DNA of 64,000 nt, taken from IMG/VR virus record IMGVR_UViG_3300045988_109836; one strand, written 5' to 3'. Shown here one piece after another: positions 36,182-59,089 of the stretch. Under the pieces are notes generated by a model, which saw nothing but the letters and a program-made list of their open reading frames with translations, searched no databases and was not told the origin of the DNA. The DNA comes from a virus. How positions within the stretch are numbered: position 1 is the first letter of the stretch; the number at the start of each line of letters is the position of its first letter. The translations under genes were made by a program, and so were the position numbers.

Positions 36182-36248
36182 CAAAGATAATATTATGTTA
36201 TGACATACGCAAGTGCGTATGTCTAAATTGTTAGTTATTTAACATCAT
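36182..36248 (-). promoter_or_regulatory. conserved promoter-family copy 6 (most perfect palindrome)
   Basis: -7 box TATCTTTG (36182-36189). The palindrome GACATACGCA-ct-TGCGTATGTC (36202-23) has perfect 10-bp arms. Confidence 0.65.
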
Positions 36249-40169: not shown

Positions 40170-40243
40170 ATTCGAGATAATATTTGTGTATGTCTGACCC
40201 GATTAAGAAAGGGAGCTTTCATACTCCCTTATCAATCACACCA

Positions 40244-40310
40244 CAAAGATAAGATTTGTTTATGACATACGCAATAGCTTATTCCCAATAAAATTGCATA
40301 TTTAACATTT
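40244..40310 (-). promoter_or_regulatory. conserved promoter-family copy 7 (degenerate palindrome) at the structural/early boundary
   Basis: -7 box TATCTTTG (40244-40251) and half-conserved palindrome (40264-40285). A GGGAG/CTCCC hairpin lies in the leader (40211-40228). Confidence 0.5.
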
Positions 40311-41715: not shown

Positions 41716-44700
41716 TTAGAACCATGACGGATGTTGTTTCTTGTAATCTTCGTAACTGAACATCCTTGTACATCCTGCAAAACAACCGTTTCCATCAATT
41801 CTATCTATAGAAGGGAATCCAATTTGTGCGCCGAATATTCTACCTAAATCAAATATCAAAGGCATATATGCGGCTAGTAATGTAGCGCCGCCTATCTTAC
41901 CAACCCATCTCGGCTGTGCCGTCATACTTGAACAGTCTTTAAACGTATTTACACAATTAAATACATGTTTCAAAACGCCGGATTCTATAAAAGCATTAAG
42001 TCCGCTTGAATTTGTTACATCACCAAACGTGTATTCTGATGTCTGTAAGTTACTACACCCCTCAAACATACTTTTAATGCTTACCGATACAGAATGTCCC
42101 GGTGGTGTAACGGGGTTGCCTTGTGAACCTGCTGTTCTCAAATTAATACACCCACTGAAACACTCTACATAAGTATAACATTCCGTCGATTCTGAAAACA
42201 AAGAAGATGTTATCGTTGTTAGTCCACTATTCTTAAACATTGCTAATGCACTAACTATGTTAGGAATTATTACCCCACTCACATTCAACAGACTGCTGCA
42301 CCTCTCAAACATTCTGTCACAAAACACTCTGTTTGCACTAAAATTAAATGCACTTGAACTTATACTTGTCAAATTTTCACATTCATAAAACGCCTGAGCC
42401 ATCGTTAATTCCTGTACAGAGCCAGAAAACATATTAGACGGAAGAGAAGATATACCGGAATCAATACAAAATGCGTTTGCGACTTGTCTTTTCCCCGAAA
42501 AATACTTGAATACTATTCTACAAGGAGATTGTAAATTAGTACAACCGCTAAACATATATTGGCAACTACTTATGTTTAATGCGCCTATATCGTTACTTAT
42601 ACTTGACATTCCTGTACATTTAGAAAACATATAATCCAAGAATGTTCCATTACTTGATGTCCTTAATTGTCCTTGTACCGAAGATATACCCTTACATCCG
42701 CTAAAACAATAGGAGTAATCGTTTATTATACTTCCTCCAAGTATGCTTGACAAATTTATGGGACCACTCAATCCGCTATCCTTATATGTCTGCACGAATG
42801 TACCACTTGATACAAACCCAAATAATCCTTCTGGTACGCCTTTCAGACTTGAACATCCCTCAAAAAAAGAATCGGTAGAACCGCTCATTAAACTTGTAGT
42901 CCAACTTACAACCGAATAGAGGCTGCTGCAATTCTTGAACGCCCCTTTATTCCACGAAGTCCTTACATCTTCCACAAACCATTTTATTACCTTTGTCAAG
43001 CAATTCTGGAAACCTGCAAAATTAGAAGCACTCCATGACAAATTAGCCTGCATGCCGTTAAAATCAAACAAAATTATCTTCGTTCCGCTTGAATTATAGG
43101 TGTGTGAGCTTGTTCCTATTGTCTGCTCGCCGTCACCCCATTTTACACGCAAATTGTTAAGTCCTGTAGAGGTTGTATTCATCACCGGAAGTGTCAAGTT
43201 CATACCATTTGACACAAGAACCTCCAATACCGCACCATCTTCCATCGTGATGTTGATTGTCTTTTGAAATTCTTCCGGACCTACCGTATAATTTCCTCTT
43301 TCCGTAAAATAATTCTGACTTGTAGCTACCCACGCATAGGTATCGTTACATGGCACAATCCATGATACAGAACCGGAAGAGCTTGTTACTCCAGAACTTA
43401 CATTGTCCTCTATAGTCACTCCAGAAATAGGAGAGCCGTTTTTGGTACGCACATTATATGTCACCTGGCATTTATTCCTCGGCATCGTAACATTAACATA
43501 TACATCATCATCTTGTACACTCACAGCGCCATTCTGGCTTTGATATCCTGCTTTTGTGGTCTGCCAGTTAAAATTGCGTGGCGGTACATATCCACCAAAA
43601 GTGGCTTTTCCGTTTGCGGTCGTATATTGTGATTCATTGCCAAGAACTACCTTCACTCTTTCGATAGGATTTCCGGTATCATCCACAACCGTAAAGTAAA
43701 CCCTGTACAGATTAACGCTCAATATAATAGTCGCGTTTGTGTCCGTTTCCTCTACCTGCACAAACGTGTATCCTTGTGTATATTCCGGTAACTTGCTTGC
43801 ATAGGCGTTTCCGCTTGTTCCGGCCTCTACAATGAAAGAACACTGTCCCGTCTGACCTGTATATTGCGTTTGTCCGTTAAACGTCACCTGTGCGTTCTTT
43901 ACTACACTTCCGTATCTATCTTTCACGAAGATAGTCAGTGTTACCATCTTTACAGTAAAGTTAACCGGAACCTGTGTATTTCCATATACAGAGAACGAAG
44001 ACACCACATCGTTACAATATCTATAAGAAGCCCTGTAATTATAACTTCCGGAAACCAATTGCGTAGTCACCAAACCAAGTTCATTAGTTATTAGTGGTTC
44101 GCCTTGTCCTATAACCTCAATTTCAGCGCCAGAAGCCTGTACGCCACCAACAGAAGCGTTAAACGTCACATTGTAAGGAACCGCAGCTTTCTCACTCATT
44201 CTTATGGTATATTCATTATCACCTGCCTTTATATTGACGTTTCCCTTTGCCGGGTTATAATCCTGGTGAGACGCGCTCCACTCCCATACGCCAAGTTCAA
44301 GCGTCCAACTTGCAGCAATACCGTTATTGTTAGAATACCTCGTTTCCCCGTTTATTGTCACCACTGCATTTTGAATAGGAGCTTCTGTCTGTATATCAAT
44401 AACCTTTACTGTCAGTCTTCCCGTTTGCTTTATCAAGTCTACAGTTATTGCCAACGGCTGGTTTATGACGACTGCCGTTCCGGTTCTTGTCTCATACCCT
44501 TCTCTTGTTACGCTCCACGGATAACTACCTGGTACCCTGTTGAATACAGCGTTACCGCTCGCGTCCGTGTTGGCCGTCTGTTGTTCTTCCCCTACACCCA
44601 GGACTATAGGCTGATTCTTTACTGGTTGGTTATTTATTCTAACTGTAAATATAATGTCATAGGTTACAAGCTTCAATTGCACCTCCACACGTTTGTTTTC

Positions 44701-47160
44701 CCCATTCACCGTTACGACACCTTGTTTGGTATAATAACCTTCTTTTTGTACGGTCCAGTTGTAACCACCGGATATCCGGATAAATTGTGCCTGCCCACCA
44801 CTCGTGCTTATCGCTTCCGTTCCTATGGTAACCAAAGCATCGTCAAGCGGTGTATCGTTATCGTCCGTAACATAGAAATCAATCAAATAGCCTATCTGTA
44901 CCAAATCGACTTCTACTGTCACATCCCTATCCACGACTTCTACCGTTCCTTCTTGTCCTTTAAACTCTGTTTTTGACACCTTCCAGGAATAGGAACCTGC
45001 TATCTCCACAAACTTTGCAATACCATTACTTGCCGTTTGTAGCGTCGTGCCGTTGAAAGTAACATTCGCTTTTGCTACCGGTAATCCGTTGCTTCTCACG
45101 ACAAAGTTTATATTGTATTTCGGTATAGGATTAAATTGTATGTCTATAACCGCATTTCCGTATATGGTAAAATCCTTTTCTACGGTTATATATCCTTCTT
45201 TCACGACCTTATAATGATACGTTCCTGCCGGATATACAAACCCTGTTGCAAGACCCTGTGCATTAGAGCTTCCGGTTTGATTAGGAATATCCTTGCCTGT
45301 CACCAATACAGAGGCACCGGACACCGGGTCTACGCCATCCCTTATACGGAATGTCACGTTATAGTACGGTATCTTTTCCATCTCAATTTCTATGTTGGTG
45401 GAATCCACAATTTCCGCGTTTCTTCTTACCGTATAGTAGTCTTCGTATTCTGCCGTATATTCGTATATTCCCGGAAATACCTCGAACGTCGCTATGCCGT
45501 TTTGTCCGGTATACTGAACTTTTCCTGCAAACGTTACCTTCACGTTCTGCATCCAGTCTTTCGTTTCCTTGTCACGGACAAAGAATGTCACGACACGTTC
45601 ATAGGCAGCACCTTTCAACTGTATGTATTCTACCGCATCCTTGTCCACTAATAGAGAATTCTCTACGCTTTCAAAGTTATCGGCTTCCACCTCATAATAC
45701 CATTGTCCGCGCGGTAATATTATCTTTGCTTCTCCGTTTACATCCGTTACAAGCTCTTCCCCGTTTATTGTAATTCTCGCATTCGGTATGTACTTGTTCC
45801 GATTAGAAAACACCTTGAACAATATCTGATATTCCTCTTCTCCAATATATGGTCTTATTAATTCGCTGCCGAATATGTTCTTATATCCAACAAGGTAGTT
45901 TTTTAGGAAGGTCTCTACAGTGAATTGCTTCTGATATGCGTTGTTTTTATAATAGGCGGCTATAATATCTCTTTCCCCCAAATATCCCTGTGAAAACGGC
46001 AAATACAACGGCTTTACATGAAAATCGTAAATATATACATACGGCTGGTTGGAAGTCGTTCTTTCCTGCACGAATATCGGTGCTATATACTTCATACCCG
46101 GCTTTATTGACAAGGCACGTCCGGACGGGAAATTAAGCGCTGGCGCATTCAAAAACTTCTCGTTCGTTGACAACAGTATTCCTTTTATGTAGTAATATAT
46201 ACCGTCGTTCTTTATGTCCAGATATTCGTTTTCGTGGAACCATAGAGAGCTTCCGGTTATCTGTCCGTTCTCCAGTATACCCATAGGCAACGGTTCACCG
46301 TCTACCGTCTCATATCCTGCCACTCCAAATTTAAGGTTCTGGTTCTCTATTGCAGATACCTTTACTTGTAATGATATTTCGTATGATAAATTAGGGTCTA
46401 TGATAATAAGCTTGTCCAAGTCAACCCTTCCGTCTATACCTACAGTCTGGCTACCGAAAAAAGTCATTGCATTAAATATCTCTTCATCATCTCCGTTTTC
46501 GTCCTGGGTAATGCTTATACTTTCCGGTATCAATAGAGGGTAATTATTCAAGTCCTCTACTCCTTTTGTATATTCATACGCTTTTGATACGTTCATTACC
46601 GTATTCGTCCGGTCACATGTGGGTGAGCTATATCCCATCGCCCATCCTGTAGCTTCCGGTCTCAACAAGGCAAATATAAACTCGTCCAAAGAATTATACC
46701 TTATCAATCGCAACAACTCACCCAATATCTCACCTTCCTTGCTTATGATGTCAAGTCTTCCACGTTTTGAATATTCTTCCAGGTAGTTGTAAAATAGATA
46801 TTCCATTTGTTCCTGGCTATCTACCATATTAGTAACCAAACCTCTATTCTGGATAAACATCTCAAACAGAATCTGATTCGTGTCTATCTTCTTGTATTGC
46901 CTTGCATACAACACTATCAAAGCGAATATATGGGTTATAGTTCCCCAAAAGACACGGAAATCCTCGTTCTCTTTCTTTTTTAGGAACGTAGGCAAAATTC
47001 CCCTTCCTTCCAGTTTTTCGAGCACGTTTTCTGCCCACCGTATCACTTCCTTGTCGTTTTCCTCGAAAAAACGACTGAAAGGCAAATTATCATATATAGG
47101 TGTGGACTGGGGTAAAAATAATCCCCCACACGGGTTTTCTTTCTTTATTCTTTTTTCCAT
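41716..47160 (-). CDS. giant tail-fibre protein with about 10 Ig-like/CarboxypepD_reg-like beta-sandwich repeats and a C-terminal BspA-type LRR domain
   Basis: 1814 aa from the ATG at 47160. It has repeated modules of about 85 aa (...V.V.F.V.D....P...A.V...G...TD..G.A.F....G.Y.Y.V.K.GY...). The C-terminal repeats read F.xC.sL.s (FKNCSSLYSV, FEGCSSLKGV, FSGCTNLQSP, FYECENLTSI, FERCSSLLNV and others). Confidence 0.85.
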   Translation of the reverse strand: MEKRIKKENPCGGLFLPQSTPIYDNLPFSRFFEENDKEVIRWAENVLEKLEGRGILPTFLKKKENEDFRVFWGTITHIFALIVLYARQYKKIDTNQILFEMFIQNRGLVTNMVDSQEQMEYLFYNYLEEYSKRGRLDIISKEGEILGELLRLIRYNSLDEFIFALLRPEATGWAMGYSSPTCDRTNTVMNVSKAYEYTKGVEDLNNYPLLIPESISITQDENGDDEEIFNAMTFFGSQTVGIDGRVDLDKLIIIDPNLSYEISLQVKVSAIENQNLKFGVAGYETVDGEPLPMGILENGQITGSSLWFHENEYLDIKNDGIYYYIKGILLSTNEKFLNAPALNFPSGRALSIKPGMKYIAPIFVQERTTSNQPYVYIYDFHVKPLYLPFSQGYLGERDIIAAYYKNNAYQKQFTVETFLKNYLVGYKNIFGSELIRPYIGEEEYQILFKVFSNRNKYIPNARITINGEELVTDVNGEAKIILPRGQWYYEVEADNFESVENSLLVDKDAVEYIQLKGAAYERVVTFFVRDKETKDWMQNVKVTFAGKVQYTGQNGIATFEVFPGIYEYTAEYEDYYTVRRNAEIVDSTNIEIEMEKIPYYNVTFRIRDGVDPVSGASVLVTGKDIPNQTGSSNAQGLATGFVYPAGTYHYKVVKEGYITVEKDFTIYGNAVIDIQFNPIPKYNINFVVRSNGLPVAKANVTFNGTTLQTASNGIAKFVEIAGSYSWKVSKTEFKGQEGTVEVVDRDVTVEVDLVQIGYLIDFYVTDDNDTPLDDALVTIGTEAISTSGGQAQFIRISGGYNWTVQKEGYYTKQGVVTVNGENKRVEVQLKLVTYDIIFTVRINNQPVKNQPIVLGVGEEQQTANTDASGNAVFNRVPGSYPWSVTREGYETRTGTAVVINQPLAITVDLIKQTGRLTVKVIDIQTEAPIQNAVVTINGETRYSNNNGIAASWTLELGVWEWSASHQDYNPAKGNVNIKAGDNEYTIRMSEKAAVPYNVTFNASVGGVQASGAEIEVIGQGEPLITNELGLVTTQLVSGSYNYRASYRYCNDVVSSFSVYGNTQVPVNFTVKMVTLTIFVKDRYGSVVKNAQVTFNGQTQYTGQTGQCSFIVEAGTSGNAYASKLPEYTQGYTFVQVEETDTNATIILSVNLYRVYFTVVDDTGNPIERVKVVLGNESQYTTANGKATFGGYVPPRNFNWQTTKAGYQSQNGAVSVQDDDVYVNVTMPRNKCQVTYNVRTKNGSPISGVTIEDNVSSGVTSSSGSVSWIVPCNDTYAWVATSQNYFTERGNYTVGPEEFQKTINITMEDGAVLEVLVSNGMNLTLPVMNTTSTGLNNLRVKWGDGEQTIGTSSHTYNSSGTKIILFDFNGMQANLSWSASNFAGFQNCLTKVIKWFVEDVRTSWNKGAFKNCSSLYSVVSWTTSLMSGSTDSFFEGCSSLKGVPEGLFGFVSSGTFVQTYKDSGLSGPINLSSILGGSIINDYSYCFSGCKGISSVQGQLRTSSNGTFLDYMFSKCTGMSSISNDIGALNISSCQYMFSGCTNLQSPCRIVFKYFSGKRQVANAFCIDSGISSLPSNMFSGSVQELTMAQAFYECENLTSISSSAFNFSANRVFCDRMFERCSSLLNVSGVIIPNIVSALAMFKNSGLTTITSSLFSESTECYTYVECFSGCINLRTAGSQGNPVTPPGHSVSVSIKSMFEGCSNLQTSEYTFGDVTNSSGLNAFIESGVLKHVFNCVNTFKDCSSMTAQPRWVGKIGGATLLAAYMPLIFDLGRIFGAQIGFPSIDRIDGNGCFAGCTRMFSYEDYKKQHPSWF

Positions 47161-47239
47161 GTTGAGACACAATTAATTGCGCAGTAAAAATACGATTAAT
47201 TTTGGATATTACGAAAACAAACGCAACGAAAATACTGTA

Positions 47240-47320
47240 GAACCGTTCCACTACCTCAATCTCCTTTGTTCAAGACAGTACAATAACAATAGAGGCTCTG
47301 AAGGTAGGGGTGTGGGTGAA
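47240..47320. repeat. 81-bp inverted repeat, left copy (IR-L)
   Basis: It is the exact reverse complement of 50280-50360, verified base by base. Confidence 0.95.
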
Positions 47321-48773
47321 CAACAGAAGAGTAGAACAATATTCTACATATATAGGCATATATGATAAACCGTATAAAGGGGCTTATACTGGTGTTGTAA
47401 ATTTACCAAGTGAAGAAAGTAAATTGTATGCTATTAGTAATTCTTTTGGTATTGTATTCCCTATGTATTATAGGGATACATATATGGTTGGGTATTCTGT
47501 CTATCTGGCCAGTAGTAAATTTAATGAATGGCTTATAGCTAAGTTATATAAAGGTAATAATATATGGAGTAATAATTATCCAAATTCAATAGATGATTAT
47601 AATATTTTTGGTTTATCAATAAGTTATCCTTATTATTATTTTAAAGAAAATAATAATTCAGTAATTACATTTATTTCTTATGCAATTGACTTAAGAATAA
47701 CTTGGTATGTGATACTAATTTATGGAGATACCAGTTCTAAGTTAAGTTCATATATGTCGCAAAGATTTTATACCAGTAATGCAGTAGGAGACCAACATAA
47801 ATATTTTAATAATTATTCTGTAAAGAAATATGCTTCTGTTATTAAATGTATTCCTTCTTCAAGAGGTTATGTTTATATTTATACTATTGGAAACCACGGT
47901 AATTCTTTTTTTCGGATAATAAGAGGTGAAACATCGAATAATGGTTATCCAACTGAATATCAAATTAGTTATTTAGATATATCGGGATATCCTTACAAAG
48001 ACGAAGGTAGAGTAGAACATATGGGATGGTTAGTATTGAGAAGTGATAACGAAAAAGTGATTATTTTAGTAAAATCACAAGATAGAACATATGGAGATAC
48101 GCATGCTAAATTTTATTACGGAATATGGAAAGCGTCTGTAGGGCAATATGGAGAAAGTTTATTATCAAGTAGTAATTATAGATGTTATTACAACATTCCC
48201 TCTGCAATTACATCTGTAATAGGTGGTGATTACTGGGTATCGCCAGATTTAAAATGGTTATTCTACATATCACTAAGTGGAGCTAATTACCAAGGATTTT
48301 CTAAAGGATTACATACTATAAAAGGGTCATCAGCTCTTTTTGGAGATAATGGATGGACTGGAGTTTCTTATGAAATGGAAGGAGGAGGTACAGATATTTT
48401 AAACGCTTGTCAGAACTATTATATATTAGATGTTCAATTTAATAGCAAATCTGATAAAATAATGGTTCTTGGGAATTCTTCTAAAGGTGCATTTACAGAT
48501 GTGGAACCTCGATATAGTTATGCAGAAGGTATTCAACCAGATATAATACTTTATTTTATTTGGGTGGAAAATAAGAAAAAATTTATCAAATTAAATAGTT
48601 CTTTTATAGGAGGAGATGCGCTTTGGAATGATTATAATAACTCTATATCTGGAGGCAAAGGTAATGCCTATAAACCTTTAATCAATTTTGTAAATGGAGA
48701 AATTAACTTCATGTATCCTGGAGGGAATGAGCCGTTTAATGCGTATAGATATAATTTGAGTTTCGGAGATTGA
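47241..48773 (+). CDS. silent alternative C-terminal cassette for the 3420-aa fibre protein (no promoter or own start)
   Basis: It is the only plus-strand coding region. The frame opens right after the TAG at 47238-47240 and reads NRSTTSISFVQDSTITIEALKVGVWV through the IR, identical to the giant protein. It then diverges, and its last ~200 aa are paralogous to the giant protein C-terminus. Confidence 0.75.
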   Translation, partial: NRSTTSISFVQDSTITIEALKVGVWVNNRRVEQYSTYIGIYDKPYKGAYTGVVNLPSEESKLYAISNSFGIVFPMYYRDTYMVGYSVYLASSKFNEWLIAKLYKGNNIWSNNYPNSIDDYNIFGLSISYPYYYFKENNNSVITFISYAIDLRITWYVILIYGDTSSKLSSYMSQRFYTSNAVGDQHKYFNNYSVKKYASVIKCIPSSRGYVYIYTIGNHGNSFFRIIRGETSNNGYPTEYQISYLDISGYPYKDEGRVEHMGWLVLRSDNEKVIILVKSQDRTYGDTHAKFYYGIWKASVGQYGESLLSSSNYRCYYNIPSAITSVIGGDYWVSPDLKWLFYISLSGANYQGFSKGLHTIKGSSALFGDNGWTGVSYEMEGGGTDILNACQNYYILDVQFNSKSDKIMVLGNSSKGAFTDVEPRYSYAEGIQPDIILYFIWVENKKKFIKLNSSFIGGDALWNDYNNSISGGKGNAYKPLINFVNGEINFMYPGGNEPFNAYRYNLSFGD

Positions 48774-48785
48774 TAGTTTATAAAA

Positions 48786-48818
48786 AGCGTCCATACCAAT
48801 TAAAAAAGTATGGACGCT
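48786..48818. terminator. bidirectional rho-independent terminator at the centre of the invertible segment
   Basis: 11-bp stem AGCGTCCATAC/GTATGGACGCT with T-runs on both strands. Confidence 0.75.
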
Positions 48819-48826
48819 CGTTTTAT

Positions 48827-51800
48827 TTAATCATTAAAAGTAAGAGAAGCATAATATGCTGTCGCATTCTCACTATACGATGGATAAACATAACTCATAT
48901 CCCATGTGTTCCCTAAATAATTCTGGTTAATACTAAAGAATGGTCTCAATTTACCACTTCCAGAAGCGTTATATTTGTTCCAGAAATTAGTAAATCCTAC
49001 TATATTATATGGTATATTTATCCATTTACCACCATTTAGCATTTCAAAACAAAATATATTAGTAGGATGTATACCTTCTACATAGGAATTAGCAATAATC
49101 GCTCCTCCTTGTGCTCCCTTTTGTCCATTACAGAGAACAATCATTTTAGAACCATCTTTATTAAATATAACGTCAAGAACATAATAATTAGCAAGAGTGC
49201 TTCTTAATTCTGATACAAAGTTATCATTAATAGTTATTGATGTTGCAGCCCAGCCGTTTTCATTAACTAAAACGGAAGTGCTTCTTACTATATTTATTCC
49301 TTTCGACGCTCCCCCAGAACCCTTGCCAACATAAAACATAAATCTCTTATCTTTTGACATCCACACATTACCTCCCATATTGTTAGTAATAGAAGAAGGT
49401 ATGTTATTGTAACAATGCCAATATTGCAAACTACTACTACCTTTTATATAATTCCATGTAGAAGAACCTTTCCATACCAATACATAAAAATCAAAAGTTA
49501 GATTTTCTTCTGAAAAAGTCTTTTGAGGGCCGTATACAAACAATATCAATTGATGTTTGGACAGATTAATATACACTCTCTTGTAAAAGAATATATTGAT
49601 TTTTCTTCCAACAGTAGGCCCATTAACTTTTAAGCTATAAGAACTCATAGAAGAGCCGATATCCCAAGATTGAAGTCTTATACTAATTTGATTGTTATTA
49701 TTTGGTGTTTCGGGTATCGCAATTATTTCTTGACTATTAATGCTTTCATTAATTGAATTCACTTCTTCTTGTGTTACTAAAACACATAAAGAATTACGTA
49801 CAGAATAATTATTACTATTTTGAAATACTGAACCTAAAGTGCTATCATTATCGCCTTTTACATAATTTAAAAAGCCTTTTCTTATATTCAATTGCCCCCA
49901 TGTTAACCTATTTGCACCACTAAATCCACAACATACGTAGTTCAAGTTTTGAAAATCACCATTAGAAGAAGGACTTAAATAAAAACTACCTTGTATATGA
50001 CTATATCCATACAGTCTATATGAACCATTCGCTCTATTAGAATCAAAAAATGTTGAAACTCCATATACATTAGGGGAGTCAACGAAAAGAGAAGCTACCG
50101 TTTTTAGATTTATCATCTCTAATTCATTTACTTTACTGGGGTCATATGTCAATACAGCTGCACACGAACTACTTGGATATGTCTTATTTGCCTCTATAAC
50201 TGGTTCTACATATAACCCAGAATACGAATTTTTACGAGATGTTGCGTCTCTTCCGAAATTACTGCTGCTAAATTCGTCCTTCACCCACACCCCTACCTTC
50301 AGAGCCTCTATTGTTATTGTACTGTCTTGAACAAAGGAGATTGAGGTAGTGGAACGGTTCGGATAATTAAAGTTTCCTGTTCCTGTTCCTCCCCATGTCG
50401 TGCTTCCTCCAGCTTCCCACCAGTAGTTACCCGGCTTTATCTTCAAAACTACCTGTCCGCTCGTGTTTGTAGTGCCGCTGTATGATGTACTACTGTTGTT
50501 GCTTGACAACTTCACTATTACACCGCTTCCTACTCTTGAACCTGTACTCACGTTGTTTACGTTTATTGTTATCGTTACTTCACTCGGTGTCAAATTGATT
50601 GTCAAACCTCCTGTGTTATTGCTTGTCGTATTTGACGTGACGTATCTTGTAGCGGTTACTACATATCTATTTGTCAGTCCAGATACGTATACAGTTGCTT
50701 GTCCTGCGCTGTTTGTCGTTACTGTCTGTGTTGCATGTCCTGCACCTACTTCACCAGAAGTCTGGTAACTACCATTTATACCGTACATATTTATTGTAGC
50801 ACCACTTACAGCCGCACCTGTATAAATATTCCGCACTATCACCGTCATACTCTTTATTGCAGTAGAATAAAATGCTGTAGCGTCACTGTTATGTCCTATA
50901 TTGCTAAAATTATAATTAGGAGTGATGGAATACGGTGTTTCGGTTGTCGTTGTACCTGTCACGAAATAATTCGCCAATTTTGCCGTTATCGTTGTAGTAA
51001 GACCTGCTATCCATGTATATGTAGCCAAATAATACACTACGTTATTTGCCGTCAATGATACTGTTGTTGCTACTCCTGCCGTTGTAAATACTGGCTTTAC
51101 CAGATTAGCAGTTCCCCACCATCCTAATACTGGCGTCGAAAATGGTATTTTTAGCCTAAATTCTGTACCTACACTCTTCGTCAATCTTACCGCATTCTGT
51201 GTAGTAGTTGCCAAAGGCATTGTTATCGTCGTGCTTCCGGCTACCCAATAACTCGTACCACCACCCCATGACAATGTATATGAACCTACTATCATTGGAC
51301 CGAATGACACTTGACCGCTGCTGTTCGTCGTTCCGGAAAATGTAACAGAAGAAAGGCTCTTGTTCGTCAACGTTACCGGACATCCGTTCGCATTTCCTTT
51401 TACTGCTCCTTGATAGTAGTCCTTTATGGTGAATGTTATAGAAGAACTTGTCTCGCTCATTTTCAGACTGTATGGGCTTGCCTGTCCTGCTGATAATGTA
51501 CCGGATAACGAATTATAATTCGTTTTTGAGAATGAGTAGCTTCTTCCGATACCACTCCTGTATGCAGTCCAGTTACCGCTACTGTCTGTCGTTCCTGTCT
51601 GTCCGAAATAGGAACATGATACACCGCTTATGTTTGTTCCATAATTAGAACTCTTTATATTGAATGTAAGACGTGCAGTTATATTGAGCGTCATTGTCCA
51701 GGATTGATTTTCAGATACCCACGTCCATTCTTGGCTTGCATTACTATAGTAACTTGCATAGTTTTTCGACGTATAGGTGTAATTAATACCAGCATATACA

Positions 51801-54800
51801 GTATTTGACTTTTTACCGCTTCCGTCCAACGTTATTTCTCCTGCCGGGGCATTTGAACCAGTAGGTACACTTCTTACTATCACCGCCCCACTTAAAGGAT
51901 AAGTGGCGGTAATGTTTGGAATTTTCTCTACAACCGTCAATGTCACCGTCCTTGTCGTTCTGTTCATCGTCACTGTATAGGGTGATGTCTGTGTGGCGGT
52001 TACTGTTCCTACATAGTTATTGAAATACTGTGCCGTGGCAGTCATTTGTCTATCAAGTCCACTTCTGTAAAAATCTCCTCCAGATGCTTTTGTCTGTCCG
52101 AAATAGGTGATTGTTCCCAAAAGCGCATTACTTGTATTGTAAATATTTGCTACCGTATTAATAGTTATCTTCTGATTACAAGCCAGCCATACATTTATAA
52201 GTTGCCCTGCTGATGTATAGGTAATCTTCTGGCTCGCATTGCTGTAATAATTCGGTCTTGTTACTGGTGATATTGTAATAGGTGTACCAAGATAAGTCAC
52301 AAAAGATACACTACCGTTCGCATCCAACGTTAACGGACTTGTAGAAGCTGCTGGACTGAAATTCATCTTCATAGATGAGTATTGTTCCATTGCAAAATTG
52401 ACAAATGTATCTGTTCCAGAAGCTGCCTTTCTTGTTATTTTTACAGCATTTGAACCACTGCTATTGTTATATACATTTACGTTATTCATCCCTTTATCAA
52501 AAAAGAAGTCTCTATAGGCGTTTAGTATCTTGTCATAGGTACATTTACTTAAAATTGTAGCATCTGACGCATTTTGTACATTACTTCCAGTTATGTCGTA
52601 TACAGTAGCCATTTCGAGATACCATGTAACTGGTCTGCTTCCGCCATTCAGATAAAAGAAGTTGGTTGTTGAAAAACTTCCAGTAGAACCACATCTTACA
52701 TAATAGGCATAAGTATACCATCCCCCTGTTCCGTTTCCATTATTAGAATCAACCCATTTTCTTACTGTATTATCTCCTGTTGCATTACTTGCAAAAACCA
52801 ATTGTCTTCCTGCCGGAACCTTTGCTCTGAAATATGCTACAAATTCCTTGTTTGCTGCTGTTGGTGTACCAAGATAGAAGCCGCCTAATCCAGGCGTTAC
52901 GGCAGAACTTGCATCCGTAGTGATTTCAAGCATATATTTAGGAGTGACTGGTATAACTTCACTTACCGACAAACTTACTGTAGCGGTTGAACGTGTCATT
53001 ACTACATTGAAAGGTGATGCAGTGCTTGACGTTATACTGCCTCTGTAATTGCCGTGATAAGTGGCTGTAACATCTACGTTTCTTGTTACAGAACTTCTAT
53101 ACAACGACACATTACCGCTGCTGTCTGTCTTTCCCGTCTGATGGAAATATGATACCGTAGCTCCACTTAGATTTGTTCCACTCGGCACATTTGACTTGAC
53201 GTTTATAGTTATCTTTGCCGTTACCGTCAAATCCATAGTCCATGACTGGTTGGCGGCTGTATAGGTATGTTTCTGTGTCGGATTGCTGTAGAAGTTCGGA
53301 TGTCCTACTACTGTAAACGTCATTTCCGTACCTATATATCCGTTGAATGTCACTGCACCGTTCGCGTTCGTAGTAAGTGTTCCGGTTGTACTTCCTGCCG
53401 TGTATTTTATCTGCAAGTTCTGATAATAGGTTGTCTGTGCTGGCGTTACTTCTCTTACTACAAGTGTAACCGGATTGGCTGCACGTGTCATTATGATATT
53501 GAATGGGTTTGGTGAGTTGTAAGCTATCTGTCCGGTATAGGATCCCAGATTTGATGCACTTACTGATATATTACGAGTGTTAGCACTCCAATATAATACT
53601 GCATTACCGCTACTGTCTGTTGTCTTCGTTTGACTGAAATAAGTTACTGTAGCTCCCGACACATTCGTTCCAGGCACGTTGTCCTTCACATTTACAGTTA
53701 TCTGTTTTGCACAAGTGAGATTCATGTTCCATTTCTCACTGGATGTAGTAAATATATGTGTTTGTTGATAATTCGTGTAAAACGGTCTTCTGTCCGGTGC
53801 TGATATGGTGAATGTGATGGGAATACCTAAATATGCCTCAAAAGTGTTTTTACCTGCATCTACTGTTCCATTTCCTGCTGCGGATGTATAAGCAAGTGTA
53901 AAGTTGGTATTATTGTCAAGAATTACACTCGCACCACCTGGTATCACTTCATATTGCTGCACTGTCACTACATGTTTGTTTCTCAACATAGTAACATTAA
54001 GCGGTGAAGCCGTGGTAGGTGCAATGGTTCCATTTACTGTACTATAATCGTCCTTGTCAAGCGAATACTCTTTACTCAATGCAGACCTGTACAACGAAGC
54101 GTTGCCGCTCGCGTCCGTCTTCACTATCTGTTCACTGTACGCAACCGTTACACCCTGGATATTCGTTTTCGCATATACATCTTTTACATTTACAGTTATC
54201 TTTGCAGTCACATTCAAATCGAACTTCCAGATTATACCGTCTTCATTCCATGTATACTTCTGTGTTGGGTTACTGTAAAAGTTAGAGTAGGAATCAGTCG
54301 TGAACGTGTATTCGAGACCCTTAATCAATAACTCGTTCGTATATCCGTTCTCATCCAATGTCAATTTTATTGTTCCTGCCCTGGAAGTCATTGTTACAGT
54401 CTTATTTGCAAGAAACGCTCTTCCCGCTGTACCGTATATTTCCGATACCTGTATACCTGCGTTAATCAGTTCGTATTGTACTTCTACATCCAACACTGTG
54501 CCATTCTCATTCTGCGGATGTATGAATGTATCTGTAGTAACTTCACCTGCAAGTACGGAATAGGTGTAATTACCTATCGGAACATTCTGCATCGTAACTA
54601 CACCGTTCGCGTTCGTTTCACCCTCAAACACGAGGTCTTTCAATACAGTGTTTTGTATTCTTACCAAAATTCCGTCCGGTGGTAAAACTCCTTGTGTAGA
54701 AACATTGAACGTTACCGGATATGACTTTGCAGCCAATTCTATATCCATTCTCGTTTCCGAACCCGTAGGCTTGAAATTCCCGGTCTTGGTTGTATAATAT

Positions 54801-57800
54801 TGCTTACTTGCACTGTAAGACATATTTACTGGAGACAGATACATATACACTATCCCGTCTGTATTTGTCGTTTGTGTCTGATTTACAGACATTCCGCTAA
54901 ATACAACCGTTACTCCACTCAATTTCCCGTACAAGTCGGAAATCACATATACCGGAATTCTCTTTGAACATGTATATACAAGGTCTTTTGTATTCGCATC
55001 TCTATAATTGATTATAGCTGTTGTACCGTTGCCGGAATAGAATCCTACTGGCTGCACCTGGAAACGTTCTGCAATCCCTGCATATACTGTTTTTGTAAAT
55101 TGTCCGCTTGCATTCGTCGTTACGTTCACACCGGAAGATGTACTATTGTCGTTGTAATAGCATGCAAGAACAAGACCTGTCTTTACCGGATTTGATGCTG
55201 TAGTCGAAATAGAGGGTATTATTTCTTTTACCGTGAATGTGACTGATTTTGTTCTTCTTGTTAATACTGCTGAATGTGTCTTGTCCGTAGGCAGATAGAT
55301 GTTTTCTGTCTTGCTGTTGAAATTACTGTTTCCTCCTCCATAGGTTATCGTATAATTTCCAGGCGGTATATTGAAATTTCCATTTCCTTGCGATATCAAT
55401 TGTCCGCTTGCATTCGTTGTTCCAGAAAAACTATATGCTTGTGAAGATGTTCCACCCCATGCACTCGTAACCGTTACCGGACAACTTTCTGCTGCTTTTG
55501 AATAGGGATTATTTGCTGTCAACGTCAGACTGAATGTCATTGCAGCATAACCCATGATTATATCTATATAGTCAACCGACAACGGGGGTGTAAATGTTCC
55601 GGTCTTTTTCGTATGGTCTGCCACTGTACACTCGTAGCTCATTGCGATAGGTGAGATATACACTCTTGCTGAACCATCACTTCCGGACGTAACGGTTTGA
55701 GGCAGTGACATTCCGGACACCTTTATAGTCGCATTTTCAAGCGGTCTTAGAGTGTTCTGCTGTTTTACTCTTAATTCAAGTCTTTTTGAAGCTGTTATTT
55801 CCATGAGTGTAGGTACACTCGCTCCGAAATCCCAGTTCTTAATCAGCAACCCTTCGTTCTCATAGAAGCCTTTCTGTTTGATTGTCAACTGATAATCAAT
55901 ACCTGGCATTACTTCCGGAAATATCTTGCCTTGTGCGTTTGTCGTATATTCTTTTACTGTACTATTGTACATATTTTTTACTGACACGACAATTCCTGCT
56001 TTTACCGGATTGAAATTCAGTGCAGCCTTTTGTTCTGCCACTATCTTAACGGTTACCTGGCTTACTGGTGTTGTTATCGTCACATCCACATAGAAAGACC
56101 TTGCAGCCGCATCACGTGTAGTGTTCGGCTGCACTGTCAGTACGGAACCCTTAAATGATGCTATATCGTCACTTGACACGTTAAACGTCAATTCTGCGCC
56201 ACCATCTGCAAAATTATATGGTTCGTCCTCACCGCCTAACTCTACCCGTCTGAATGTCTTTATATAGTCCATCAAGTCAAACGTTGCCCCTTTGTTGGGT
56301 ATGATTAGGTTTTCGGGTGTATGGACTATATAATAATAGCTATCGTTCGACAACGTTTCTGCCGTATTCTCACCATTGAATCTTACTGTCGTCGCGTCAC
56401 CAGATACACCAGGTATACTTTCGATTACATCTACTTCCGGCTCTATCTCCTTTCTCGTCATAGTGAAAGGAAGTTCTATGTCTTTCAGCTTTTCAAGTGT
56501 TACCGCCTGGTTTTCTACCGCATTGTAATATCTATGCGAAGCGTTCCAAGTATATTCCCCCGCCTCTGCTCCAAGCAACAACACGCCTATATCGTTCGTA
56601 TAGCCGGAATCCACCTTTATTCCCGTACCCTTGTTTATCAATTCGATATATACTCCAGAAATAGGGTCTTTTGTTATTGCGTCTGTCGCAGTGTATGTTA
56701 TTACCGTGTCCCTCAACTCTAAAAAGATTGTTTCGGGTACATCCTGGTCCTTAATAGTCACCGTTCCGGTATATCTCTTGTAATTTCTGTGTGTTACCGT
56801 ATATTCATAATCACCATTGGGTAATGTTATACTCGATACACCATTGACATTCGTTATATGCGTTTCTCCGTTAATCTGGATTTCCGCACCTTGTATGTAG
56901 TTACCGTTCTCTATGTCTCTGACAGTTAGTCTGAATGTATAGAATGCCTGTTCAAGTTCAATTATTTTTGATACCTCCGTACCATCCACAACAACGAAGT
57001 CGTTGACCGACATATAACCGGACTTAAAAGCGGTATATTCGTATGTTCCATTAGGAAGGCTGACAATCGCCACACCTTCTGAATCTGTTAAATATGTCGA
57101 TTCGTTGATTTTTATTGTCGCTCCTTCCAACACCATTTGTGTTGCCGCATCCAATACGGTAAACTTTATGGCATACGGAATCGCGGTCATTTCAACAAGT
57201 ATACAATTAGGGTCTTCTGCCGTTACCTCAATCTCCTTGTTGAGTTCTTGGTAGTCCTTTTTTACTACCTTCATTTCATACCTTCCTGTCTGCAATCCGA
57301 TTGTTGCCTGCCCTTCCTTGTCTGTTGTCTCTGTAATATCCTTTATGATAATATCGGCTTCCGGAACATAAATATTTCTATTTCTGTCTATTACAGCAAA
57401 ATTAACTTCCTTGGTTGTAAGAAACATTCTTTGGAATACCTCTACTGGCTGGTTTTCTACTGTAAAAACACTCTCTATAGTTTGAAAACCTGCCTTCTCT
57501 AAAGTGTATTCGTATATACCAGGTTCGAGACTTATTGTCGCTGTTCCGTCCTCTCCTGTTTCAGATGTGTAAACACTTGTCTTTACCGTAACACCTTGTA
57601 ACGGTGCTTCTCCTTCATATACAGTAAACGTTACTGGATAAGGTGTTGCAACAAAATCGTTTATATTTATGTATATAGGGTTGTTCAAAACCACAAACTC
57701 ACCCTTCTTTTGAGTCCAGTTCGTTTTTGAAAGGATGTATTCATATTCCCCGTTTTCGAGAAGAATGTTTGCCGTACCGTTACTGTCCGTAATGATTACC

Positions 57801-59089
57801 TTGTTTCCTATTGTTATATATGCACCCGGTACGGCTACATTCTTGGTATTTGTCACTGTAAACGAACACAAATATTTCTGTGACGCTATGACTGATTGCG
57901 ACCCTTTATATATATCACTTTCCCCTGCCGGATAGAAAATATTGGATAGACTGCTTCCCGAATCATACAAGATGTTTCCTTCCAAATCTCGCATTCTGAA
58001 ACCCTTGATACGCGGCAACATGTTCAAAGGAACCTCTTCGTCAAAGTAGGGGAAGAAGTATTCATCTGGTACATATTTCACGCCTTCTGCTGTCTTCACG
58101 ACTTCCAACAAATCATCCCATTCTACCTTTTTACCTGCTTCCCAGAAACGGAAATCAAGATATTTTGTCATTGCAATCTGGATATTTTTTCTTACATCCG
58201 CAATCACTGCATTAGGTGACAATTCCACACGGAAATCTACCCCCTCTTCACCACCTACATACATCCATTTTGCATTTTCAATCACTATTCCAAGCGTATT
58301 CCCTTGCAAGTCAAGTTCTGTCAATCCGAAATAGGGTGTTGCTTTTGTCAATAATTCTTCCAATTCATCATCCGTAAAGAAAGAACCGTTTTGCGTCACA
58401 AGGTAGATATGTGTCTTTCCATCCTCGCCCAAACCGACATTCATAACCTTTAGAATGCGTGAATCCAAATCCTGGAATATCTGTGTCCAGCCTTCCATTG
58501 TATCGGTGGAAAGCTTGTTGTTGTAATTTATTATTCTGTTTCTGAATGTCTCGTCGTCCTCATAGTCACGTCCACCAATAGCTGCGTATTCATTAGTGCA
58601 CTCTATATGTGTCAACGGTCTTGGCGATACCTCTGTAATACTATTCGCCTCCACATTCGTAGCCGACCCGGTTATAACACTGCGTACACTGATATATCCA
58701 TATCCCGACTTATCAACAGTAAACGGCTGGTCTACAATGAATTGTACTCCATTCTTTGATATAAACTTTGTGCCTACCTCGTACTGTGTACCTGGTTCAG
58801 CGAATACACGTACATAAGTAGAGGAACCAAGCGCTTCTTTTCTCGGACTGACACCGAACAACGCTGCCGACTTGTCAAGATAATTTCCTGTTGCCGATTT
58901 CGGGAAAATCTGTGCCTCCACTATGGCAATATCCTTTATCGCTTTTTGTGCCACCTTTGCGGTGCCATAGGCAACACCATTAAGTACAGAACCGTCCGCA
59001 ATATTTGAAACACGGTCGGTCTTGTTCAAGAACATTTCAATCCACAAATTTTTTAAATTTGCAATCGTATTCGCTGTTTTAGTAATCAT
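48827..59089 (-). CDS. 3420-aa baseplate-J-like/tail-fibre fusion protein (currently expressed variant A)
   Basis: An uninterrupted ATG ORF. The N-terminal ~400 aa are collinear with baseplate J/gp6-type proteins (...GSVLNGVAYGTAKVA..., ...AIGGRDYEDDETFRNRI...). Many Ig-like repeats follow, then tandem modules of about 165 aa, then the variable C-terminus. Confidence 0.9.
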   Translation of the reverse strand: MITKTANTIANLKNLWIEMFLNKTDRVSNIADGSVLNGVAYGTAKVAQKAIKDIAIVEAQIFPKSATGNYLDKSAALFGVSPRKEALGSSTYVRVFAEPGTQYEVGTKFISKNGVQFIVDQPFTVDKSGYGYISVRSVITGSATNVEANSITEVSPRPLTHIECTNEYAAIGGRDYEDDETFRNRIINYNNKLSTDTMEGWTQIFQDLDSRILKVMNVGLGEDGKTHIYLVTQNGSFFTDDELEELLTKATPYFGLTELDLQGNTLGIVIENAKWMYVGGEEGVDFRVELSPNAVIADVRKNIQIAMTKYLDFRFWEAGKKVEWDDLLEVVKTAEGVKYVPDEYFFPYFDEEVPLNMLPRIKGFRMRDLEGNILYDSGSSLSNIFYPAGESDIYKGSQSVIASQKYLCSFTVTNTKNVAVPGAYITIGNKVIITDSNGTANILLENGEYEYILSKTNWTQKKGEFVVLNNPIYININDFVATPYPVTFTVYEGEAPLQGVTVKTSVYTSETGEDGTATISLEPGIYEYTLEKAGFQTIESVFTVENQPVEVFQRMFLTTKEVNFAVIDRNRNIYVPEADIIIKDITETTDKEGQATIGLQTGRYEMKVVKKDYQELNKEIEVTAEDPNCILVEMTAIPYAIKFTVLDAATQMVLEGATIKINESTYLTDSEGVAIVSLPNGTYEYTAFKSGYMSVNDFVVVDGTEVSKIIELEQAFYTFRLTVRDIENGNYIQGAEIQINGETHITNVNGVSSITLPNGDYEYTVTHRNYKRYTGTVTIKDQDVPETIFLELRDTVITYTATDAITKDPISGVYIELINKGTGIKVDSGYTNDIGVLLLGAEAGEYTWNASHRYYNAVENQAVTLEKLKDIELPFTMTRKEIEPEVDVIESIPGVSGDATTVRFNGENTAETLSNDSYYYIVHTPENLIIPNKGATFDLMDYIKTFRRVELGGEDEPYNFADGGAELTFNVSSDDIASFKGSVLTVQPNTTRDAAARSFYVDVTITTPVSQVTVKIVAEQKAALNFNPVKAGIVVSVKNMYNSTVKEYTTNAQGKIFPEVMPGIDYQLTIKQKGFYENEGLLIKNWDFGASVPTLMEITASKRLELRVKQQNTLRPLENATIKVSGMSLPQTVTSGSDGSARVYISPIAMSYECTVADHTKKTGTFTPPLSVDYIDIIMGYAAMTFSLTLTANNPYSKAAESCPVTVTSAWGGTSSQAYSFSGTTNASGQLISQGNGNFNIPPGNYTITYGGGNSNFNSKTENIYLPTDKTHSAVLTRRTKSVTFTVKEIIPSISTTASNPVKTGLVLACYYNDNSTSSGVNVTTNASGQFTKTVYAGIAERFQVQPVGFYSGNGTTAIINYRDANTKDLVYTCSKRIPVYVISDLYGKLSGVTVVFSGMSVNQTQTTNTDGIVYMYLSPVNMSYSASKQYYTTKTGNFKPTGSETRMDIELAAKSYPVTFNVSTQGVLPPDGILVRIQNTVLKDLVFEGETNANGVVTMQNVPIGNYTYSVLAGEVTTDTFIHPQNENGTVLDVEVQYELINAGIQVSEIYGTAGRAFLANKTVTMTSRAGTIKLTLDENGYTNELLIKGLEYTFTTDSYSNFYSNPTQKYTWNEDGIIWKFDLNVTAKITVNVKDVYAKTNIQGVTVAYSEQIVKTDASGNASLYRSALSKEYSLDKDDYSTVNGTIAPTTASPLNVTMLRNKHVVTVQQYEVIPGGASVILDNNTNFTLAYTSAAGNGTVDAGKNTFEAYLGIPITFTISAPDRRPFYTNYQQTHIFTTSSEKWNMNLTCAKQITVNVKDNVPGTNVSGATVTYFSQTKTTDSSGNAVLYWSANTRNISVSASNLGSYTGQIAYNSPNPFNIIMTRAANPVTLVVREVTPAQTTYYQNLQIKYTAGSTTGTLTTNANGAVTFNGYIGTEMTFTVVGHPNFYSNPTQKHTYTAANQSWTMDLTVTAKITINVKSNVPSGTNLSGATVSYFHQTGKTDSSGNVSLYRSSVTRNVDVTATYHGNYRGSITSSTASPFNVVMTRSTATVSLSVSEVIPVTPKYMLEITTDASSAVTPGLGGFYLGTPTAANKEFVAYFRAKVPAGRQLVFASNATGDNTVRKWVDSNNGNGTGGWYTYAYYVRCGSTGSFSTTNFFYLNGGSRPVTWYLEMATVYDITGSNVQNASDATILSKCTYDKILNAYRDFFFDKGMNNVNVYNNSSGSNAVKITRKAASGTDTFVNFAMEQYSSMKMNFSPAASTSPLTLDANGSVSFVTYLGTPITISPVTRPNYYSNASQKITYTSAGQLINVWLACNQKITINTVANIYNTSNALLGTITYFGQTKASGGDFYRSGLDRQMTATAQYFNNYVGTVTATQTSPYTVTMNRTTRTVTLTVVEKIPNITATYPLSGAVIVRSVPTGSNAPAGEITLDGSGKKSNTVYAGINYTYTSKNYASYYSNASQEWTWVSENQSWTMTLNITARLTFNIKSSNYGTNISGVSCSYFGQTGTTDSSGNWTAYRSGIGRSYSFSKTNYNSLSGTLSAGQASPYSLKMSETSSSITFTIKDYYQGAVKGNANGCPVTLTNKSLSSVTFSGTTNSSGQVSFGPMIVGSYTLSWGGGTSYWVAGSTTITMPLATTTQNAVRLTKSVGTEFRLKIPFSTPVLGWWGTANLVKPVFTTAGVATTVSLTANNVVYYLATYTWIAGLTTTITAKLANYFVTGTTTTETPYSITPNYNFSNIGHNSDATAFYSTAIKSMTVIVRNIYTGAAVSGATINMYGINGSYQTSGEVGAGHATQTVTTNSAGQATVYVSGLTNRYVVTATRYVTSNTTSNNTGGLTINLTPSEVTITINVNNVSTGSRVGSGVIVKLSSNNSSTSYSGTTNTSGQVVLKIKPGNYWWEAGGSTTWGGTGTGNFNYPNRSTTSISFVQDSTITIEALKVGVWVKDEFSSSNFGRDATSRKNSYSGLYVEPVIEANKTYPSSSCAAVLTYDPSKVNELEMINLKTVASLFVDSPNVYGVSTFFDSNRANGSYRLYGYSHIQGSFYLSPSSNGDFQNLNYVCCGFSGANRLTWGQLNIRKGFLNYVKGDNDSTLGSVFQNSNNYSVRNSLCVLVTQEEVNSINESINSQEIIAIPETPNNNNQISIRLQSWDIGSSMSSYSLKVNGPTVGRKINIFFYKRVYINLSKHQLILFVYGPQKTFSEENLTFDFYVLVWKGSSTWNYIKGSSSLQYWHCYNNIPSSITNNMGGNVWMSKDKRFMFYVGKGSGGASKGINIVRSTSVLVNENGWAATSITINDNFVSELRSTLANYYVLDVIFNKDGSKMIVLCNGQKGAQGGAIIANSYVEGIHPTNIFCFEMLNGGKWINIPYNIVGFTNFWNKYNASGSGKLRPFFSINQNYLGNTWDMSYVYPSYSENATAYYASLTFND
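50280..50360. repeat. 81-bp inverted repeat, right copy (IR-R), inside the 3420-aa gene
   Basis: It is the exact reverse complement of 47240-47320. Confidence 0.95.

Follow-up and report, generated by a model that had tools for sequence, protein, structure and literature searches.

A two-armed cassette within a giant baseplate-fibre gene

The 64,000 nucleotides (nt) of viral DNA analysed here, IMG/VR record IMGVR_UViG_3300045988_109836 (the window), are the first 64 kilobases (kb) of a 104,195-nt human-gut scaffold (ERZ28599142, scaffold_93). Within the gene for a 3420-amino-acid (aa) baseplate-fibre protein they contain a cassette of two alternative C-terminal arms bounded by an inverted repeat, which we propose to be a switch of the fibre tip. 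A repeat search of the window found the two copies of the repeat at 47240-47320 and 50280-50360, 100% complementary over 81 nt, separated by 2959 nt and lying within coding sequence, as a preliminary description of the window had stated; the invertible unit that they bound is 47240-50360, i.e. the 3121 base pairs (bp) that had been claimed. The 100% DNA identity of the copies ends precisely at the two repeat edges, beyond which it is at background level. Its 35-nt core matches at these two sites only, with 0 matches in shuffled sequences, and no second long exact repeat is present in the 64-kb window.

The right copy (50280..50360, minus strand) is in frame within the 3420-aa open reading frame (ORF) 48827..59089(-), where it encodes NRSTTSISFVQDSTITIEALKVGVWV. 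It connects the constant part of the protein (residues 1-2910; 50361..59089, minus strand; placed from the ORF list, Pfam and phrog_6) to the expressed arm, which is of type A06 and comprises 483 aa past the repeat plus a stop codon (48827..50279, minus strand). The left copy (47240..47320, plus strand) is in frame with a silent alternative arm of type A10, which also has 483 aa past the repeat plus a stop codon and ends at 48773 (47321..48773, plus strand). The ORF frames therefore agree with the preliminary description that both copies encode the same peptide in frame, the left one together with the plus-strand arm, although the extent of the peptide has to be corrected: its codons start at 47241 and 50359, as the repeat begins on the third base of the codon before (TAG and CCG respectively). 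The silent arm is the sole exception to a window in which all other genes are on the minus strand, and the sign of the guanine-cytosine (GC) skew flips in 47-49 kb only, which agrees with a genuine plus-strand coding arm among minus-strand genes.

The silent arm has neither an ATG start of its own nor a promoter. Directly 5' of its repeat copy there is an in-frame TAG (47238..47240, plus strand), the final base of which is the first base of the repeat; this stop codon was present in all 16 of the silent copies checked, and the flank CTGTA was found in 42 silent-side copies. The stop codon and the missing ATG are consistent with the silent arm being untranslated in the present orientation. The fixed outer flank on this side is a short conserved intergenic sequence (47173..47237, from the flank consensus), and the fixed neighbour of the cassette is an 1818-aa structural protein with Ig-like CarboxypepD_reg repeats (41716..47172, minus strand).

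Between the convergent stop codons of the two arms lies a 53-nt spacer (48774..48826), found by repeat search and RNA folding to contain a hairpin (48779-48796 / 48808-48825) with runs of U on both strands. Predicted folding energies on the two strands are -21.0 and -22.4 kcal/mol (z -5.7 and -6.2). All 25 cassettes have a strong hairpin at their centre, and its sequence falls into several families. We interpret it as a bidirectional terminator; a simple terminator scan reported none in the cassette, the loop of this hairpin being above the limit of that scan.

Arms are fused and silent in different relatives

Dozens of related contigs of ~105 kb are present in IMG/VR and in gut assemblies of the ENA. 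In a first comparison the constant part, both arm types and the downstream gene were placed on 17 IMG/VR loci; 47 metagenome stretches were then added, and arm types were defined at 85% aa identity (loci are referred to by L numbers). The window's exact 35-nt repeat core was not found in IMG/VR because its repeat haplotype is rare, and relatives were recovered by protein-based and degenerate-pattern searches. Among the 17 loci, the armL-type module was fused to the constant part in 5 and silent in 12, and ~70%-identical homologues of the window's silent arm were fused to the constant part in L002, L007, L008, L013 and L017. The N-terminal 400 aa of the constant part are 99% conserved across the relatives and its last 410 aa 68-88%, and the N-terminus of the 1818-aa downstream protein is 93-96% conserved.

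Wherever a locus spans the cassette the position of the repeat is unchanged, and all 25 unique cassettes keep it, as would be expected of relatives if the repeat drives the exchange. Across these cassettes it measures 78-85 nt, its copies are 96-100% identical and the spacer between them is 2956-3060 nt; 48 copies were recovered with an expressed-side flank and 42 with a silent-side flank. The arms fall into at least 18 types. Types A01-A05 and A07-A09 were each found in both slots, and A06, which is expressed in the window, is silent in L268 and L269 (96% aa identity for the L269 copy). The 25 unique cassettes contain 23 different pairings of expressed (ON) and silent (OFF) arms, and in every genome the expressed type differs from the silent type, which indicates that the exchange is reciprocal rather than copy-paste conversion.

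Evidence also comes from pairs of genomes with the same arms in opposite orientations. L004 and L007 have collinear flanks and differ by a reversal of 3200 nt (96.8% identity), and L008 and L009, also with collinear flanks, by a reversal of 3129 nt (95.7%). The window itself and L269 share a rare repeat haplotype and are reversed relative to each other over 2603 nt at 91.3%, with flanks at 82-87%. L269 and L001, the latter with the window's own cassette, were assembled by MEGAHIT at k=141; as such k-mers reach across the 81-nt repeat, the orientation of both contigs is not the assembler's guess. Just one pair in opposite orientations is nearly identical, L241 and L238 (99.9%); L241, a SPAdes contig of 1.35x coverage, carries the reciprocal junction, which hints at a very recent flip. 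The preliminary description had predicted that recombination between the repeats would swap the C-terminus of the 3420-aa protein, and had proposed a search of related genomes for both orientations; the arm types found both fused and silent, and the three arm pairs found inverted between collinear flanks, bear this out. The presence of both orientations among related genomes supports the view that the segment inverts, swapping the C-terminus of the fibre. Flipping may be frequent within a phage population, in which both isomers would then coexist.

Several irregular cassettes and contigs were observed. In L245 (PPYF01267469.1) a deletion has joined the repeat to an armL-type arm in the wrong reading frame, in L251 (ULPF01039283.1) a TGG codon within the expressed repeat copy is TGA, and in L236 (OYYQ01000024.1) the silent arm is truncated; these rare defective cassettes may be real defective genomes or assembly errors. 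The contigs L229 (55 nt into the repeat), L235, L012 and L014 end inside the repeat or within tens of bases of it, as expected from conflicting orientations and equally from any repeat longer than k. A length of 104,281 nt is given for two different phages, ERZ27274232 k141_63334 (L001) and ERZ654277/UAEF01000002 NODE_2 (L219/L231/L268), which is a coincidence or a labelling issue. The cassette of L001 is A06/A10, identical to that of the window, and that of L219/L231/L268 is A12/A06-like.

Silent arms are under the same selection as expressed arms, and the repeat evolves in concert

Intact arms were found in 34 of 35 silent and 39 of 41 expressed positions. The ratio of nonsynonymous to synonymous substitution rates was 0.35 for comparisons between OFF arms, 0.36 between ON arms and 0.35 for mixed pairs, and neither the intactness of the arms nor the selection result depends on the orientation calls. 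This equal purifying selection suggests that silent arms are expressed regularly, as it would be hard to maintain if their expression were rare.

The two repeat copies of a genome differ by a mean of 0.68 nt, compared with 5.07 nt between genomes, and none of 10,000 permutations gave a value as low. This test bears out the earlier suggestion that the perfect identity of the window's repeat implies ongoing recombination. The repeat haplotype tracks the genome and not the arm type, which is the opposite of what is predicted for a crossover fixed at one end of the repeat. Where the repeats are imperfect, their mismatches are patchy with variable end points (positions 13-28 in L259; 49 and 58 in L017; 11, 56 and 70 in L018), and these patches look like gene conversion tracts.

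The arms are predicted to be beta-propeller-like tips

Measured from the repeat, both arms of the window are 510 aa long, and they are paralogues (29% identity, E=1e-42). Neither has a match in Pfam or PHROGs, and tblastn of the arm against deposited phages returned nothing. An exhaustive search of 1.84 billion representative proteins gave 22 arm homologues, one of which is a 3417-aa fusion; nearly all of them are standalone ORFs of 480-500 aa. That only 22 matches were found among 1.84 billion indicates that the arm is an orphan family confined to this lineage. The GC content of both arms (47001-50000) is ~31%, compared with ~40% elsewhere, which fits arms that circulate as exchangeable modules with their own history.

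An AlphaFold model of the arm, built with 30 homologues, is almost all beta and of moderate confidence (predicted local distance difference test, pLDDT, 69.6; predicted template modelling score, pTM, 0.77). Foldseek places this model among beta-propellers, namely neuraminidases, PL24 polysaccharide lyase, GH43 and carotenoid oxygenases, at template modelling (TM) scores of 0.27-0.35, and its top matches act on glycans. The model therefore predicts a beta-propeller-like tip, at the level of fold class and with no specific enzymatic claim. From this fold class and their position at the end of the fibre, the arms would bind receptors and set host range.

Search for a recombinase and its sites

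Pfam scans of the window's minus-strand ORFs of ~100 aa or more gave no serine or tyrosine recombinase, and neither did a PHROGs scan of its unannotated ORFs. The rest of the genome was rebuilt from a relative (L085, L178 and L054, with overlaps verified), and among the 75 ORFs outside the window that were scanned there was no Resolvase, Recombinase or Phage_integrase match with intact catalytic residues. The sole recombinase-related match there was a 153-aa protein (L178:18329-18787; IMGVR 3300045988_103629), which matches Pfam HTH_17 and Resolvase (E=1.4e-7) and has the catalytic domain of the IS607-type ISC1926 TnpA as its closest solved match. In this protein the nucleophile motif RVSS has become RVMN and the domain stops at position 101 of the 145 of the Resolvase profile. 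It is nearly invariant in 56 loci, always with RVMN, and its gene lies among head and packaging genes, far from the cassette. Judged by its sequence, activity as a serine recombinase is very unlikely, and with its MerR-like helix-turn-helix (HTH) and resolvase-type domain the protein may be a domesticated DNA-binding protein.

No recombinase gene was found beside the cassette in 25 genomes. The crossover sites of the gix/hix/cix type are 26 bp long with the core AAACC-NN-GGTTT; neither arm of the repeat contains a match to a gix-type core at up to 2 mismatches, and matches over the whole window are at chance level. The inverted-repeat motif of Mpi is ARACGTWCGT, and an Mpi-type inverton was rejected because neither repeat arm contains this motif at up to 1 mismatch. 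The outer flanks share no similarity beyond the repeat.

Proposed mechanism and alternative explanations

We favour, with about even confidence, the interpretation that the cassette is a two-cassette, gene-splicing inversion switch of the tip of the giant baseplate fibre, flipped most likely by general homologous recombination and not by a dedicated invertase. The 81-bp repeat encodes a junction peptide of 27 residues at the end of the constant 2910 residues, and in this mechanism reciprocal recombination between the repeat copies would flip 3121 bp, so that the silent arm would become the in-frame C-terminus and the old arm would become silent, with the sequence outside the segment unaltered. 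The identical repeat of 78-85 bp would itself be the substrate, recombination would be carried out by the phage RecA and its flanking nuclease genes or by host machinery, and gene conversion in the same process would keep the copies identical. Phage populations would then carry two receptor-binding specificities per genome, drawn from a re-assorting pool of at least 18 arm types.

The phage encodes a RecA (22133..23104, minus strand; Pfam RecA E=6e-75, plus RecA_C), which we suggest acts in recombination and gene conversion of the repeat. Flanking it (20151..24132, minus strand) are a possible SbcC/Rad50-like ORF (20151-22151) and an SbcD/Mre11-like phosphoesterase (23104-24132). The AAA_23 match of the SbcC-like ORF is weak (E=0.009, under the Pfam cut-off). 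We interpret recA and the SbcC/SbcD-like genes as a recombination module, and this module may be linked to the switch. Perfect identity over 80 bp exceeds the minimal efficient processing segment for RecA-type exchange, and in phages whose replication depends on recombination, short homologies recombine at a high rate. The concerted evolution of the repeat, the conversion-like tracts, the phage RecA and the failure to find an invertase together favour general homologous recombination over a site-specific enzyme.

Several observations weigh against this interpretation. A length of 81 bp is short for efficient RecA-type exchange. Most of the ~105-kb assemblies run straight through the cassette, so one orientation usually dominates per sample and flipping may be slow, and L241, the contig that hints at a very recent flip, may be a chimera assembled through the repeat. 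At its outer end the repeat has 10 nt (GAACCGTTCC, with the 9-bp palindrome GAAC-C-GTTC) that are invariant in 50 of 50 copies, including three synonymous sites, and that could be a protein recognition site. About a dozen unannotated ORFs could hide a new recombinase, and a host-encoded invertase could act on the repeat. The receptor-binding role of the arms is itself weakened by the low TM-scores of the fold matches (0.27-0.35) and the pLDDT of 69.6.

These points lead to the most serious competing explanation, which we regard as unlikely though of real weight: that the same switch is flipped by an unrecognised site-specific recombinase, either a novel enzyme of the phage or an invertase that the Bacteroidota host supplies in trans, at a site in the repeat, perhaps the palindrome GAACCGTTC, the concerted evolution of the remaining repeat being a by-product of occasional gene conversion. 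The invariance and palindromic character of repeat positions 1-10 in the 50 copies would be explained in this way, as would the outer boundary of the repeat, which is at the identical nucleotide in every genome; many ORFs are still unannotated, and the well-studied switches of tail-fibre C-termini (Mu Gin, P1 Cin, e14 Pin and p15B Min) all use dedicated recombinases, as is well established (Milman 2023, PMC9881135). However, neither the window nor the remaining genome of the relative gave a catalytically intact recombinase, and the 25 genomes have no recombinase gene by the cassette, unlike the known systems. Nor does the repeat contain a gix-like or Mpi-like motif, and the outer flanks are dissimilar. 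A crossover fixed at the outer end also predicts arm-specific repeat haplotypes, whereas the haplotypes track the genome. A separate explanation, in which the 153-aa HTH and resolvase-like protein is a non-canonical invertase or an essential inversion cofactor, is very improbable. The protein is the sole recombinase-related one in the genome, and its Resolvase match (E=1.4e-7), its match to ISC1926 TnpA and its invariance in 56 loci speak for it, but every copy has RVMN, the domain lacks the long E-helix on which the synaptic tetramer depends and the gene is far from the cassette.

The cassette might alternatively not be a programmed intragenomic switch, the repeat and hairpin serving as homology linkers for arm swaps between co-infecting phages and the second arm being a spare that would enter the expressed slot by rare recombination between genomes or by rare inversion over evolutionary time. 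The free re-assortment of arms (23 pairings in 25 cassettes) would be expected in that case, identity within the closest well-supported ON/OFF pairs of one arm type is 98.3-99.7% and not 100%, and assemblies of long contigs usually run through the cassette in one orientation only. We nevertheless consider this improbable, as the identity of the copies within a genome requires intragenomic exchange and selection on the silent arms equals that on the expressed arms. An intramolecular crossover between sites 3 kb apart is also simpler than an antiparallel double crossover between two genomes, and the same arm pairs are inverted as whole units between collinear flanks. That the repeat or its alternative orientations arose by mis-assembly is scarcely credible: an 81-nt repeat is longer than common SPAdes k-mers, four contigs end at it (L229, L235, L012 and L014) and the discordant contig has a coverage of 1.35x, but more than 25 independent assemblies from different assemblers contain the cassette, each with a repeat haplotype and arm pair of its own, both orientations are found in MEGAHIT k=141 contigs, and each genome has two intact arms under selection. 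Inversion by general recombination is the reading that we favour. Its fullest form, i.e. a virulent gut phage with a programmed switch, in which the repeat is flipped by the phage's own RecA machinery, each burst mixes two beta-propeller tips and arms are traded from a pool of at least 18 types, is more tentative, and to our judgement slightly more likely to fail in some part than to hold in all.

The phage, its lineage and other features of the genome

The 3420-aa protein has a Baseplate_J domain at residues 68-194 (Pfam E=3.8e-16) followed by many Ig-like CarboxypepD_reg repeats (E=5e-33), and it matches phrog_6, a baseplate wedge subunit, in PHROGs. Upstream of its gene are a tail-tube-initiator-like gene and baseplate-like genes. 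Thirteen IMG/VR contigs (L025, L028, L029, L035, L038, L041, L044, L046, L047, L050, L052, L071 and L073) stop within tens of bases of its start codon (locus coordinate ~17,740-17,790), which could reflect a recurrent assembly break or a genome end.

The phage appears to be virulent. No integrase was found, and the phage was absent from 185,579 representative bacterial genomes, which gave neither a prophage nor a hint of the host. Its replication and recombination set comprises a split PolIII alpha, a DnaB-like helicase, a primase, an NAD ligase, RNase H, and RecA with its flanking nuclease genes, and UvrD-type and SNF2-type helicases are also encoded. Distant relatives of the baseplate domain occur in the Bacteroides thetaiotaomicron phages DAC16-23 and SJC03 (38%) and in a Chryseobacterium phage (40%), which fits a Bacteroidota host. 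Among deposited phages, megablast found no useful relative, whether the query was the cassette or 20 kb of the window. In MT835500.1 (L267, 44,461-52,602) the baseplate domain is 63% identical, and a 2714-aa gene is followed by ORFs on the same strand; the inverted-repeat cassette is absent. This indicates that the cassette is specific to, and dates from within, the ~105-kb lineage.

Direct repeats of ~66-70 nt lie between genes at 1-66, 5646-5711, 10156-10221, 18923-18988, 34401-34466, 36180-36245 and 40239-40308. Each contains the hairpin GACATACGCAnnTGCGTATGTC, and the clearest copies (1-66 and 5646-5711) have on the coding (minus) strand a TAnnTTTG box, which we take to resemble the Bacteroidota -7 promoter motif; these repeats look like terminator-plus-promoter units that divide gene clusters.

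The genome is rich in selfish elements. A 404-aa TnpB (13150-14364, minus strand) with OrfB_IS605 and Cas12f-like TNB domains lies in the replication module with no TnpA beside it, and a second TnpB copy is in the head region of the relative (L054:2599-3810). The element appears to be mobile within this phage lineage, as it occupies different sites in the window and the relative. An IS607-type pair of TnpA and TnpB was rejected, as neither TnpB copy has a TnpA next to it, and the resolvase-like gene, whose product lacks the catalytic serine, is located elsewhere. The PolIII alpha gene (window 26911-31019, minus strand) consists of two separate ORFs and has an intein-like stretch, an intein with a LAGLIDADG domain lies in the portal gene (L178:3619-6621), and there are two free-standing GIY-YIG-type ORFs (L054:7240-8166 and L178:16597-17490), one of which also has NUMOD1/NUMOD3 motifs.

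Significance

Gut Bacteroidota evade phages by phase-varying their capsules and surface layers. The cassette, found in dozens of human-gut assemblies, is a widespread candidate answer to the question of how virulent gut phages keep pace, as it would give each genome two interchangeable tips and access to a shared pool of at least 18. It would in that case be a phage counterpart to the phase-variable capsules of the Bacteroidota hosts. If it is indeed flipped by general recombination, programmed splicing inversions would be possible wherever a short intragenic inverted repeat is maintained, and searches that require a neighbouring recombinase gene would miss such switches. The cassette could also be a natural modular scaffold for phage retargeting, with the junction peptide and the central hairpin as clean swap points.

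Comparison with known systems

The preliminary description had likened the cassette to the tail-fibre switches Mu G, P1 C and e14 P. The likeness holds for the logic, i.e. a constant N-terminus with two swappable C-termini, and does not extend to membership of the family, as no Gin/Cin/Pin-type invertase, gix-like core or chaperone genes were found. As in Mu G (Gin), P1/P7 C (Cin), e14 P (Pin) and p15B Min, inverted repeats inside a tail-fibre gene bound an invertible segment with alternative C-termini on opposite strands, the unexpressed arm is silent, and alternative receptor specificities are to be expected. Unlike those switches, the cassette has no invertase gene beside the segment or detected in the genome and no gix-like 26-bp site, and its repeat is 78-85 bp long and evolves in concert over its whole length. 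Nor, with no invertase gene found, is there one to host the Fis-dependent recombinational enhancer of that family. In place of the S/U and S'/U' pairs of the Mu type, each half of the segment is one ORF running from repeat to hairpin, with no assembly-chaperone genes. The Mu-type carriers are temperate and enterobacterial, whereas here an apparently virulent ~105-kb gut phage of Bacteroidota type has a 3420-aa Baseplate_J fusion, a terminator-like hairpin between the arms and a pool of at least 18 arm types.

The cassette also resembles isomerisation by inverted repeats. In the cyanophages A-1(L), N-1 and Elbi a ~30-kb segment flips between inverted repeats without a dedicated recombinase having been identified (bioRxiv 10.64898/2026.02.14.705889), and the modules of Campylobacter phage CP21 undergo recombination-driven inverted-repeat isomerisation (PMC4546147). 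As in these phages, herpesviruses and plastids, both orientations occur among close relatives and no dedicated recombinase is known; the proposal made for those systems is general recombination in the course of replication. The features of such a homologous-recombination flip-flop that we found are a repeat of 78-85 nt evolving in concert and encoded genes for general recombination. The isomerising systems have repeats of 400-700 bp or longer and flip whole gene blocks with coding unaltered, whereas here an 81-bp intragenic repeat would re-splice one protein.

Intragenic invertons and SusC/D shufflons of Bacteroidales have been surveyed (PMC9881135), and inversions of the Type I restriction-modification hsdS genes of B. 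fragilis are also known (PMC7641763). Like these invertons and R64 Rci/pilV, the cassette exchanges specificity-determining C-termini using silent partial genes on the opposite strand. R64 Rci/pilV, hsdS and SusC/D have an adjacent tyrosine or serine recombinase, short specific repeats and often several segments, whereas here there is one repeat pair, without an adjacent recombinase, in a phage genome; an R64-type shufflon (several segments, 19-bp repeats and a tyrosine recombinase) was rejected given the single repeat pair and the lack of a Phage_integrase domain among those found. In Neisseria pilE/pilS, too, silent promoterless variant copies reach an expression site by general recombination at short conserved blocks, although that process is a non-reciprocal conversion from many donors and the one proposed here is a reciprocal inversion between exactly two arms. 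The diversity-generating retroelements of gut Bacteroides phages (Hankyphage) share with the cassette a phage-encoded variation of the receptor-binding tip against phase-variable hosts; they employ a reverse transcriptase and direct mutations to a variable repeat, and such an element was rejected here, as there was no RVT_1-type match (the sole RVT_3 match lies within the RNase H protein) and no template/variable direct repeat. A full-text literature search turned up neither this cassette nor a tail-fibre splice switch that works without a recombinase, although this does not prove that none has been described. Set beside these systems, the cassette is probably a Mu-G-like C-terminal switch in a virulent gut phage, driven by homologous recombination with no detectable invertase and supplied by a large re-assorting pool of orphan arms.

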